From positions 1 to 64,000 of the forward strand of contig JAHPZJ010000024.1 of assembly GCA_019058245.1 (NCBI GenBank): 64,000 nt of DNA. The letters are read 5' to 3'. Position numbers and translations under genes: made by a program. This DNA comes from Promethearchaeota archaeon (GTDB taxonomy: Archaea; Asgardarchaeota; Lokiarchaeia; Sigyniarchaeales; SOKP01). The notes under the pieces were generated by a model that saw only the letters and a program-made list of their open reading frames with translations, was not told where the DNA came from and searched no databases. This document shows positions 59,139 through 63,370 of the stretch, one piece after another (within the stretch, counting starts at the first letter, position 1; each line of letters starts with the position of its first letter).

Positions 59139-59297
59139 ATGACCGCACCTAAATTAAAAGCAAAAGATTTATCTATATGTACAAAGTGCGGTAATGTAAT
59201 GGTAAATAGAGTAATACGGACTACCAATTCGGATGAAGTAGTATTCCAAAAAGTATTACAATGCATCGTTTGTAGATATTGGATCGCTCAAGATTAA
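59139..59297 (+). CDS. Uncalled 52-aa zinc-ribbon protein
   Basis: MTAPKLKAKDLSICTKCGNVM...VLQCIVCRYWIAQD; two CxxC motifs; GTGA SD-like motif upstream. Confidence 0.78.
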   Translation: MTAPKLKAKDLSICTKCGNVMVNRVIRTTNSDEVVFQKVLQCIVCRYWIAQD

Positions 59298-59462
59298 CTT
59301 CTTTAGCAGATCTTTTAAAAATTCTTAAATTAATTGGAATCTAATAATCTATAATTTGGATTAATAATATTGTTCAAAATACATAGTCATTATTCCGTAT
59401 CATTGACACATAATAAAATATAATAGGATAATTTTTATATTAATAAAACTAATATTTAGTAA

Positions 59463-59609
59463 GTAAGGGAATCTATCAGACAATTTGCGTAAACATTGGA
59501 TAGATTATCTCATGTCGGGAGATCGCCAAAATTCGCCCTCTATTAAACTCGAATGAGTTTAATTCTCTCCCTAATTTTAAAAAATTGGCGCAAATTTCTT
59601 TTCCCTTAC
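59463..59609. ncRNA. Candidate structured non-coding RNA (~150 nt), family unrecognised
   Basis: Several complementary segment pairs including a 9-bp closing stem; 36% GC over 59461-59610 versus 13% in the preceding 60 nt (hand count); lies between convergent genes. Confidence 0.6.
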
Positions 59610-59692
59610 CTTTTCTTAAATATATCAGAAAAAAAAACTAATTTTTAGAGTTTTCTCTCTCTAAGAAATAATTTTTGAGAAGCGGATTAATT

Positions 59693-60499
59693 TCATTTTA
59701 AAAGTTCTCTAATAGTTATTTTTAATCCATCTTCAGCAGCAATAACATTTTTTATATTAGTATTATCTTGAAGTTTTTTTACTTGGCTAGGGACATAATT
59801 TTTTGTCGATCGAGGGCTATCCATATAGGATCCAAAGTGATTAATGATAAGAGTATCAAGAGGAGGGTCAATATTATTTAAATATGGGATAACTTCATCA
59901 GTACATAAATGTCTTTTACAGACAATTGAGTCTGGTCGTAAAAGATTAAGGACTAATACATTTACTCCTGAAAACTCTTCCGAAAATCCATCATATACCA
60001 TTGTATCACTTGAAAATGCTAACGTATAATTTTTAAGCTTAAATATCACTCCAAAGCCTTCAGTTGTAGGAGAATGAACAACCTTAGTTGCTTTAATTTC
60101 CACTCCATTATAAGTAAATATATCTCCTTGTTTGAATCTAATAATTTCTTCAAGCATGTTAAGATGATAATCAGAAATATATTGCAGCATTTCATTTGTG
60201 GTAATTAGAGTGCCTTTCTTATAGTAATTATATTTTTTATCATGCAACATTTCTCTTGAACTTTCTATTATAGCACTTAAATCGTTATAATGATCAACAT
60301 GGGCATGAGTAACTATGAAAAGTTCAGTTTTAGTAGGATCCTCTTGATATTGATTTATTCTTACTATAGCTCCGGGTCCAGGATCTATATGAGACTGAAT
60401 CTTATTGAATTTATATAAAATTCCTCCAGTGGCTCTATATTGGGTCCTAATATGATGTCGACCACCTCCAGAACCAAGAAAAACTAACTCATCATTCAT
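59693..60499 (-). CDS. MBL-fold hydrolase (RNase Z/PhnP-like archaeal family)
   Basis: FLGSGGGR, IDPGPG, THAHVDH, SSDT, HL, NHFG. Confidence 0.85.
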   Translation of the reverse strand: MNDELVFLGSGGGRHHIRTQYRATGGILYKFNKIQSHIDPGPGAIVRINQYQEDPTKTELFIVTHAHVDHYNDLSAIIESSREMLHDKKYNYYKKGTLITTNEMLQYISDYHLNMLEEIIRFKQGDIFTYNGVEIKATKVVHSPTTEGFGVIFKLKNYTLAFSSDTMVYDGFSEEFSGVNVLVLNLLRPDSIVCKRHLCTDEVIPYLNNIDPPLDTLIINHFGSYMDSPRSTKNYVPSQVKKLQDNTNIKNVIAAEDGLKITIRELLK

Positions 60500-60511
60500 G
60501 ATATAAAATAT

Positions 60512-61030
60512 CTAATATCTGCTAATGTTAATTAATTGTTTTATAATTCTTTCAAATACTAATTCAACATTGTAACCCGTTTTCGCTGAAGTTTTGATAT
60601 AATCTATCATATTAAAGGTGTTTTTTAGATTTATAGCACTTTCATCATCAACAGCAATTACATCGTCTAAATCTAATTTTGTTCCTACAAGAATAATTGG
60701 TAAATTAATATCATGCAATCGAGCAATATTTACCCATTTTAAAATATCATTTATAACAGGCATTCGGGTTAAATCAAATAAAAGAAGTGCGGCTCGAGCG
60801 CCCATTACAAAATTTTCAAGAAGATATCTAAAGCGTTCTTGACCTCCTAAATCCCATAATTGAAGTAAGCAATGTGAATTATTAAAATTAATTTCTTTGG
60901 TAAAAAAGTCAACACCCACCGTCATAATTGAACTTTGATCGAACATTCCGTCGACATATCGTCTTAACAAAGATGTCTTTCCTACTGAGGCATTTCCTGC
61001 TACTAAAATTTTAAAAATATAGTTCTTCAT
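60512..61030 (-). CDS. Rab-like small GTPase
   Basis: FKILVAGNASVGKTS, TVGVDF, WDLGGQERF, GTKLD, TSAK; no C-terminal prenylation Cys. Confidence 0.92.
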   Translation of the reverse strand: MKNYIFKILVAGNASVGKTSLLRRYVDGMFDQSSIMTVGVDFFTKEINFNNSHCLLQLWDLGGQERFRYLLENFVMGARAALLLFDLTRMPVINDILKWVNIARLHDINLPIILVGTKLDLDDVIAVDDESAINLKNTFNMIDYIKTSAKTGYNVELVFERIIKQLINISRY

Positions 61031-61105
61031 GTTTAAATGGGTATATAATATGAATGTAAACTCACATATTTATTTTAATACTTAAAATTATATTGAATTC
61101 AAATC

Positions 61106-63370
61106 TTAATTAATCTGTAATTCTTGCATCAATATTTCATCAATTTCTTGTAAATGGGGTTTTAATATTTGATTTAATTGATTTTGGATTTTAAATTTAG
61201 TATAATTCATATTGTTTTTCTTGATAAAAGTATTAGTTGAATTTTTCGCAACTAATTGAATACTTTTGCCTAATTCTGCTAATCTATTATGAGATGGAGT
61301 CCTCCTATCAAATTTTTTAATTGGAAAATTTAGTGGAAGTTTAAAGATATGTCTTGAACTTTTTAAAATTTTTATTTGTTCTGTCATTAGATTAGAATTT
61401 AAGATAGCGGACAAATAATGAGCTTCTTCTATACTATTTGTATCGAAGAAACTCAAGTCTCCTGTGACTAAGAAATTTCCTTTTATTACTGCCGCACTTA
61501 ATATAGAACCTGAATTATTATAAACCACTTTTATTTTAGATTTCTGTCTTTCATTTATCAGTTTTGACCATCGATTCAAGTTATCCATTAAAGTTCTATG
61601 TTTGGTCGTGGCTTTTTTATTTTCTTTGTATACTTGGTTGATTTTATCATAGAAGAGTTTTGCATGGTATTTTAAATCATTATATATAAATTTTAAATCA
61701 GATTTTCTAAGTGGTAAAAAAACATTATAGAAGTTGTAAACATGGAACTTTACTAACTCAGTACTTTTAATGACTTTAAATAAATATTCTTTTTCTAGAA
61801 TTACATCTTTAAATTCGTTTTTATTCCAAGGTGCTTTAGCTCTCTTAAAAATTCTCATATCGGGATTAATTTTTATTAAACCATCAGATAGATTCTCAAC
61901 TTTAACAAATATTAGATTTCGTGGGTTTAAATCTGCTCCCTTATGAAAAAGTGTTTTATAATGACTTTCTTTTATGGTTAATAAATTCTTAATTTCTTTT
62001 TCTGAGAGAATTTTTGATACATAGGCTTTCCCACCTTTTTTTTCAATTGAATATGGCAATAGAGGAATTTTCTTGTCCAGTTTTAATTTTAGCGGCATAA
62101 AATAGTCTACAAATTTAAAATCTTTATTTATTATGTAATGATATGACATAATTTTATTATCCCCATTTTCAAAATTCTCTTCTGTTTTTACTCCAAATAA
62201 ACAAATAAAGTCAATTTTAAACACATTTTCTATTTTTTTATCAAATGTCCAAATTTTTATATTTGAAAATCCTTTAAAATTACGGAATCTAGAAGCATGA
62301 GAACCAGTAATAACTCCTTTCGTTATGACAAAAAAAATTTTAGCACCATCTTTCATAAATAATTTTCGAGCATTTGCAAAAAATAAGGTTGATATTTCTA
62401 GATTTAGAAGATTTTTAGGTAAGGGTTTTATTTCTAATTCTTCTGCTAGCCTTTTAACTTTCTCTTGAGATGAAGTAGAATCAATATCTCGATATGTATA
62501 CCAAGGTGGATTTCCTATTACTAGATCAAATGTGTCTTTCAGATTATTTTTCATTTGAAAAAGTGAATCCGCGACTTTTAAATTTAACTTAATATGCGGA
62601 ATCGTATCTTTTAATAAATACAAGAAGTTAATTTTAGTTAAGAAAATAGAAATTGGATTTATATCATAACCAAAAATTCTATTTATTGCATTAATTTTAT
62701 TTTCCTTTGATTCATTTCGAGATTTAATATTTTTTATAATAGCAATTAGAAAATTACCAGTACCACAACATGGATCAATAACAAATTCACCAAAAGAATA
62801 AGATTCTCTAACCATTTGTTCAGCCAAAAAAGGAGGGGTATAATATTCTCCAGAATTATGTCTTGTAAGCGGAGAAATTATTTTTTGAATTAAATAATCA
62901 AATATATATTCGGGTTTTAAACTTAATTGAAGGATATATTCAAATACACTCTGAACTAGTTCATAAAAAACAGTTAAATCTTGTTGTTCTGATTCTGATA
63001 ATAATATAAGCGGATTAAAATATCTAAAAGAAAAAACTGAATAGTTATTGCAACTTAAATTAACCTTATCTTCAATTTTTCTAAAAGATTCTCTATTAAT
63101 TTTGCGATTATTGAATAGATTTTGATTTTTTAGGATAAACCAATAAATAAAAATATAACCTATAAGATAGATTAAAGCTGAAATTATATATAGCTGAAGT
63201 GTAGTTTGTTTTTTACCGTATATCTTTATAAAATCTTTCCTCCATAGCTTAAATTCTTCTTTCTCGAATATTTCATTTTCTCTTAAAATATCTTCAATTT
63301 TTTTCAGATTTTCAGTTATAAAATTGAAATCTAAGCCATTATTTTCTTTTGGACTCAGTATAAACGCCAA
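61106..63370 (-). CDS. N6-adenine DNA methyltransferase (gamma class, Type IIG/IIL-like, with target-recognition region)
   Basis: GEYYTP, DPCCGTGNF (motif I), GYDINP, GNPPW (motif IV), YLSAILNS. Confidence 0.88.
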   Translation of the reverse strand: MAFILSPKENNGLDFNFITENLKKIEDILRENEIFEKEEFKLWRKDFIKIYGKKQTTLQLYIISALIYLIGYIFIYWFILKNQNLFNNRKINRESFRKIEDKVNLSCNNYSVFSFRYFNPLILLSESEQQDLTVFYELVQSVFEYILQLSLKPEYIFDYLIQKIISPLTRHNSGEYYTPPFLAEQMVRESYSFGEFVIDPCCGTGNFLIAIIKNIKSRNESKENKINAINRIFGYDINPISIFLTKINFLYLLKDTIPHIKLNLKVADSLFQMKNNLKDTFDLVIGNPPWYTYRDIDSTSSQEKVKRLAEELEIKPLPKNLLNLEISTLFFANARKLFMKDGAKIFFVITKGVITGSHASRFRNFKGFSNIKIWTFDKKIENVFKIDFICLFGVKTEENFENGDNKIMSYHYIINKDFKFVDYFMPLKLKLDKKIPLLPYSIEKKGGKAYVSKILSEKEIKNLLTIKESHYKTLFHKGADLNPRNLIFVKVENLSDGLIKINPDMRIFKRAKAPWNKNEFKDVILEKEYLFKVIKSTELVKFHVYNFYNVFLPLRKSDLKFIYNDLKYHAKLFYDKINQVYKENKKATTKHRTLMDNLNRWSKLINERQKSKIKVVYNNSGSILSAAVIKGNFLVTGDLSFFDTNSIEEAHYLSAILNSNLMTEQIKILKSSRHIFKLPLNFPIKKFDRRTPSHNRLAELGKSIQLVAKNSTNTFIKKNNMNYTKFKIQNQLNQILKPHLQEIDEILMQELQIN

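Follow-up and report, generated by a model that had tools for sequence, protein, structure and literature searches.

The RNA gene and its neighbours

The window, by which we mean the whole 64,000-nt stretch of Promethearchaeota archaeon DNA that was analyzed, carries a stand-alone, uncatalogued noncoding RNA gene on the plus strand at positions 59463 to 59617. The evidence for both the gene and its fold is strong, and we have very little doubt that they are real. Upstream on the same strand is a conserved 52-amino-acid, zinc-ribbon-like ORF (CxxC..CxxC; 59139 to 59297), for which an NCBIfam search gave no family match. Downstream, on the minus strand at 59693 to 60499, is an MBL-fold hydrolase gene (PF12706; weak RNase Z or phosphodiesterase similarity), which is the marker of the main locus of the RNA across the family. 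The hydrolase gene belongs to a single-strand run with an N6-adenine methyltransferase and a Rab/Ras-like GTPase (59693 to 63370) that is conserved beside the RNA. A second recurrent locus, represented by nine examples, places the RNA upstream of a gene for an RNase J-like beta-CASP protein; two of the commonest neighbours of the RNA are MBL-fold enzymes (the MBL hydrolase and the RNase J-like beta-CASP protein).

The RNA gene has signals of its own. A TATA-like box was located at 59432 to 59441, and a T/A profile of 105 members placed a T-rich then A-rich signal at -31 to -24, in line with the TATA-like sequence that the first-pass annotation had noticed 5' of the RNA. A motif search of 104 upstream regions found an operator-like semi-palindromic motif (consensus approximately GTTC..GATATT.GAAC) at -71 to -54 in family members; the window copy, at 59393 to 59410, is degenerate, and a genome scan for a regulon with this motif was uninformative. 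The gene ends in a U-rich tract (59610 to 59617) that is conserved in the alignment and is probably an archaeal terminator. The element forms an island of approximately 35% GC in surrounding DNA of 17 to 25%, with 17% upstream, a contrast that had been put at 36% versus 13%. When folded, the 147-nt stretch reached -41.6 kcal/mol, with z-scores of -5.2 on the plus strand and -4.0 on the minus strand relative to dinucleotide shuffles, and 0 of 200 shuffles folded as well. Rfam gave zero matches overlapping the element, even with E values up to 10, and we found no account of this RNA family in the literature. Together with the homologs and covariation described below, these results support the earlier proposal of a novel ncRNA.

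Fold, strand and distribution

At the genus level, 29 distinct homologs share a nested fold made of P1, P2, an inserted hairpin, a short lower stem, a pyrimidine bubble and P3. P1 pairs 59463 to 59471 with 59601 to 59609, and P2 (AATTTGCG/CGCAAATT) pairs 59482 to 59490 with 59588 to 59596, the 3' strands of both occupying 59588 to 59609. The inserted domain (59502 to 59531), a variable hairpin with an RNNUC pentaloop and a UUGG/CCAA closure, is missing from most family members. P3 is a 9-bp hairpin with a variable loop of 3 to 4 nt (59542 to 59563), and the short lower stem, whose 3' strand at 59574 to 59578 pairs with 59529 to 59533, closes the bubble. Every complementary segment that had been listed from the sequence was found in place, and not all of them proved to be conserved helices. 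The closing stem P1, P2, the ATCTC/GAGAT inner hairpin and the 9-bp hairpin were kept across the 29 homologs, with 94% of cells paired. Both sides had changed in 15 of the 36 pairs, including all 9 pairs of P2, a level of covariation reached by 0 of 500 shuffles, and among 52 diverse family members both sides had changed in 22 of 24 pairs, including all 7 P3 core pairs; these counts were taken over related sequences and are not probabilities. In distant members, the sequence of P3 is wholly replaced with its pairing kept. The short lower stem (helix 5) was 90% paired, with zero pairs changed on both sides. Conversely, the suggested TCTATC/GATAGA and CGCCAA/TTGGCG helices were 48% and 66% paired, which is no better than shuffles, and there is therefore no support for a pseudoknot or switch. 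The pairing of 59482-89 with 59589-96, on which that suggestion had been built, is real, but it is the ordinary nested helix P2. On average over members, the GCCCUCU and CUCUCCC segments are predicted to be unpaired (0.6 to 0.9) and GG to be paired. For the window copy, the minimum-energy fold partly hides these guide strands, the consensus-constrained fold being approximately 8 kcal/mol less stable.

The strand of the gene, which had been left ambiguous, is assigned to plus from sequence features: P1 and P2 contain 36 G-U cells, each of which the minus strand would turn into an A-C mismatch, and the TATA-like signal, the operator-like motif and the U-tract also favour plus. At the main locus, next to the MBL-fold hydrolase gene, the RNA occurs in both orientations with the same two flanking genes (58 loci versus 17), and the minority orientation is scattered over the MBL tree in approximately five or six separate positions, some of which are weakly supported. 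When the gene is inverted, its TATA-like box moves with it. Since the gene faces either way and its promoter goes along, the RNA is an independent transcription unit and not a UTR element, in line with the first-pass judgement that a 5' riboswitch for either neighbouring gene was unlikely. Such orientation changes could also be expected of a MITE-like nonautonomous mobile element or other selfish repeat, as could the imperfect terminal complementarity, variable copy number and local duplicates of the RNA. This explanation, which had been among those first offered, is highly improbable and largely refuted: there is no target-site duplication and the flanks differ, synteny is long-term, with the main locus kept across many genera, the stems covary with plus-strand G-U pairs, the promoter is external to the paired ends, the commonest annotated neighbours include no transposase, and the viral contigs searched contained no match to the RNA.

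A covariance model matched 115 of 131 genomes from 12 genera of the host family within Promethearchaeia, nearly every genome of which has one to several copies, and a DNA search gave strong matches in most of the 36 genus genomes; the homologs that had been proposed as a check in other Asgard genomes were thus found. Outside the family, where the genomes searched are incomplete, the model matched 0 of 19 genomes from other families of the same order and a second, family-wide model, applied to 26 genomes of other families, gave nothing convincing. Weak model matches outside the family were unconvincing, the best one being antisense to an ORF, and 12-mer matches in another family (f4) and in other classes fell mostly within coding sequence. 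Records containing the core motif were mostly named Promethearchaeota, Promethearchaeia or uncultured archaeon. One complete copy of the RNA, on a short contig assigned to a genome from a different Asgard class (L310), is probably bin contamination.

Within genomes, the 19-nt strand described below occurred up to 7 times when two mismatches were allowed, and the host genome has further copies on contigs C13 (complete) and C6 (partial). On contig C30 of genome G000 are two divergent copies approximately 2 kb apart (L446:1501-1619 and L447:1501-1624), which keep the P1/P2 scaffold and differ in their C-rich loops (ACCUC and CUCCCC). Near the end of the same contig (approximately 234150 to 235150), a coding sequence is repeated in tandem approximately every 369 nt. 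On contig C31 of G000, a different structured RNA of approximately 120 nt (L342:1490-1610; approximately 2488 to 2608) adjoins a tetraether synthase gene; it has the 12-nt core GAUUUCGCCCUC in common, followed by a perfect anti-Shine-Dalgarno (anti-SD) CCUCCU, and is present in other genus genomes. In four GC-richer structured elements from a genome of another family (G038), long C/U runs come after this core; these elements are possibly a distant sister family.

The invariant strand and its possible partners

The near-invariant element across the family is a 19-nt strand, ACAUUGGAUUUCGCCCUCU, around which the stems vary freely. It was whole in 107 members; in the remaining members, including the window copy, a hairpin is inserted before or after a UUC triplet, and nearly all of them keep the order of the 19 nt. 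In the window, its first part (ACAUUGGAU, 59493 to 59501) includes a CAU complementary to AUG, and its second part (UUCGCCCUCUA, 59532 to 59542) forms the 5' side of the pyrimidine bubble, is anti-SD-like and is complementary to UAGAGGGC(G) of 16S rRNA. The 3' side of the bubble (UCUCUCCCU, 59564 to 59572) has an LhrC-like CUCCC..UUUU motif and is complementary to GGGAGAGG of 16S rRNA; main-locus copies hardly vary in it, and in paralogs it drifts while staying mostly pyrimidine. The 19-mer survives in copies that lack P3, and some copies, without a pocket, have neither P3 nor the 3' C/U strand. A GAUUU/GAUUC-like motif recurs at three sites, namely the core, the loop of the insert and the 3' side. 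A ribozyme, another of the first proposals, is unlikely, as nothing but the 19-mer is invariant across the family and some copies have no distal hairpin; an sRNA or guide scaffold fits best among those proposals. We infer that the RNA probably acts by base pairing through its pyrimidine strands. From its sequence, the invariant stretch looks made for pairing with RNA, most likely at mRNA start sites and possibly with the small ribosomal RNA.

The invariance might instead reflect a protein. In a decoy or scaffold of the 6S, Csr or Lsm-sponge type, the invariant strand would bind protein and its complementarities would be accidents of C/U composition. The 19 nt are invariant across 12 genera with no clear single target, and the repeated GAUUU/GAUUC-like motif and the combination of a closing stem with a central bubble are also consistent with this explanation. 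We nevertheless consider it unlikely: hairpin insertions are tolerated at two points inside the motif, chance would be required for two separate complementarity signals, and neither CsrA nor Ro60/TROVE was found in the 5 genomes searched. Several known RNA classes were rejected. A CsrB/Rsm sponge was set aside with one GGA, mostly predicted paired, and a Y RNA with the Ro60-binding stem motif in 0 of 97 members. A 6S RNA had no Rfam match, and the distal arm here is only 9 bp. For box C/D sRNAs, the exact C box (RUGAUGA) was present in 0 of 97 members, and the D-box-type CCCUGA, in 46 of 97, is missing from the window copy. RNase P RNA and SRP RNA models did not match at the element, both RNAs being present elsewhere in relatives, and an antisense mini-ORF of the type I toxin kind on the minus strand had no frame conservation, the short ORFs there being random.

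Our main reading, to which we give a probability of roughly 0.4, is that the RNA is a trans-acting, multicopy "sibling" sRNA directed against translation initiation. The invariant strand would pair with mRNA initiation regions, CGCCCUCU covering the Shine-Dalgarno (SD) zone and CAU the start codon. G-U wobble would broaden the range of targets, and the UCUCUCCC strand would be a second purine-tract-binding site, as in LhrC. Loading of 30S subunits would then be blocked on many SD-led messages whenever the upstream operator permits expression, and leaders of the AGAGGGUGA..AUG type would be the expected targets. The complement of the 19-mer is an SD-like site, 6 nt and an AUG, which is the usual register of the host genome. 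With CAU placed on AUG, CGCCCUCU falls at -15 to -8, the G-rich SD zone; across 1287 starts of the host genome, G was enriched from -15 to -8, with GAGG peaking at -14 and GTGA at -10, positions that match the complement. The shuffle P values were 0.0125 and 0.0025 when CAU was kept on AUG, and 0.022 when any register was allowed. In the latter case CAU on AUG was again the best register, and the 16S 3' end did not score as a positive. The initiation-region test and the 16S-pairing test were both designed after the motif had been seen. Real starts of the SD-like plus AUG form exist in the family, for example those of uL10 and an oxidoreductase beta subunit, and an sRNA is unnecessary to explain them. 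A search for mRNA targets in the 76%-complete host genome, compared through counts and minima, gave a best duplex of -19.7 kcal/mol versus approximately -19.2 in shuffles, with none outstanding, and in orthologs of the top candidate generic SD and AUG pairing alone was kept, which is not specific conservation. CGCCCUCU is an imperfect anti-SD; related RNA types have the same 12-nt core and then a perfect CCUCCU, but lack the CAU. The copy number, TATA-like box, operator-like motif and U-tract of the RNA are all consistent with sibling sRNAs.

The other candidate partner is 16S rRNA, with which the RNA could pair in the manner of snR30/U17 and chaperone, delay or mark assembly of the small-subunit platform, a reading that we regard as rather unlikely. 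The form of it that we considered, in which an inverted two-strand pocket would grip the h21/h22 junction of the cell's own 16S rRNA as a nonmodifying, snR30/U17-like guide in platform assembly or turnover, is doubtful, and we found no description of such a guide in archaea in the literature. Its basis is the complementarity of GCCCUCUA to UAGAGGGC and of UCUCUCCC to the neighbouring GGGAGAGG, with 15 Watson-Crick pairs and 1 G-U pair, the two bubble strands covering 16 contiguous 16S nucleotides at the h21/h22 junction with no gap and with the junction at the lower stem. We take this target to be approximately 652 to 667 in E. coli numbering, in the uS15/platform region. It was the best site in 16S and 23S rRNA, with a score of 41 versus 29 for the best unrelated site, and no site on either strand of the genome (6.2 Mb over both strands) reached its score. 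Shuffled guides did so in 0.12 to 0.2% of trials (P of 0.001 to 0.002), but the 16S lead had been proposed ahead of its test, and because of SD-like purine tracts such matches are more probable than the shuffles suggest. A perfect site was present in 8 of 8 family 16S genes scored, and among 12 16S genes of other families, in which the RNA was not found, 11 scored 0 to 30 and one scored 40; with the target invariant in the family, however, this amounts to one phylogenetic contrast, not covariation. The near invariance of the 3' strand at the main locus favours such pairing, whereas in many paralogs this strand is drifting or missing. The pairing accounts for only 8 to 12 of the 19 invariant nt, the 19-mer alone matched rRNA no better than shuffles (P of 0.35), an ACA tail was present in 1 of 97 members, and a family-only range with variable copy number is odd for a biogenesis factor.

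Other rRNA and structural RNA pairings were discarded. Canonical pseudouridylation geometry on 16S rRNA scored 31, the shuffle level, contiguous pairing of the 19-mer to 16S h23, h24 or h44 or to 23S rRNA was not above shuffles, and no conserved complement was seen in rRNA leaders and trailers. A complement in SRP RNA was strong in the host genome only (P of 0.006 versus 0.6 in a relative). In the RNase P RNA of the genus (L031, L032), the CR-I region (GAGGAACYUCGCCC) is unusual and similar to the motif of the RNA, a likeness judged to be chance. The 16S leader contains a conserved, structured element of approximately 110 nt, with paired ends and a CUGA-ending hairpin, at approximately -200 to -90 relative to the start of the 16S gene (L102-L126). 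The 16S and 23S genes were unlinked in the genomes checked; one 16S gene (L035, contig C18 of G029) has an insertion of approximately 145 nt and differs in sequence from the 16S of the family, and three further 16S genes in these bins also look foreign (L121, L122, L128).

To our knowledge, the regulatory RNAs of Asgard archaea are almost undescribed. Should the RNA block initiation regions, multicopy riboregulators aimed at the SD sequence and start codon would be in use in a near relative of eukaryotes; should its partner be 16S h22, it would bear on the origin of the rRNA-chaperoning snoRNAs of eukaryotes.

Comparison with known systems

The eukaryotic H/ACA snoRNA snR30/U17 pairs through the proximal part of its internal loop and guides platform assembly (PMC2664660, PMC12095548). 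The likeness to the archaeal RNA is that opposite internal-loop strands pair with the central domain of small-subunit rRNA, here as a computed bipartite complement, in an orientation opposite to that of a pseudouridylation pocket. The RNA differs in having no ACA tail or K-loop, in its variable copy number and in its predicted target, which is the contiguous core h21/h22 rather than two separated ES6 motifs. Judged by eye, P3 is a simple helix whose loop varies freely, unlike the K-turn or K-loop of archaeal H/ACA RNAs.

Among sRNAs, sRNA162 of Methanosarcina mazei is an archaeal example in which a single-stranded region masks a ribosome-binding site (PMC3510493), although its fold differs and it has specific known targets. 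The Cuckoo/CcsR sRNAs of Alphaproteobacteria (PMC4615179) resemble the RNA in their invariant, anti-SD-like single-stranded motif, compensatory stems, multiple copies and lineage-restricted range. Their motif, CCUCCUCCC, lies in 2 to 4 hairpin loops, whereas CGCCCUCU lies in an internal bubble; hairpins with CCUCCUCCC loops were missing from our alignments and there was no Rfam match, and membership in the Cuckoo family was rejected. As in sibling anti-SD sRNAs generally, genomes often have several homologous stand-alone genes with their own promoter and a conserved, C/U-rich motif that is predicted to be unpaired and able to pair with SD regions. Compared to LhrC1-5 of Listeria monocytogenes (PMC4132741), the RNA is archaeal, its ends are clamped by long P1/P2 stems, it has one invariant 19-mer with CAU, and its mRNA targets are candidates. 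It is nevertheless like LhrC1-5 in its several copies, its exposed C/U-rich sites, the low GC content of its host, the proposed occlusion of SD sequences and the CUCCC..UUUU motif, which in LhrC is the SD-blocking motif (PMC4132741).
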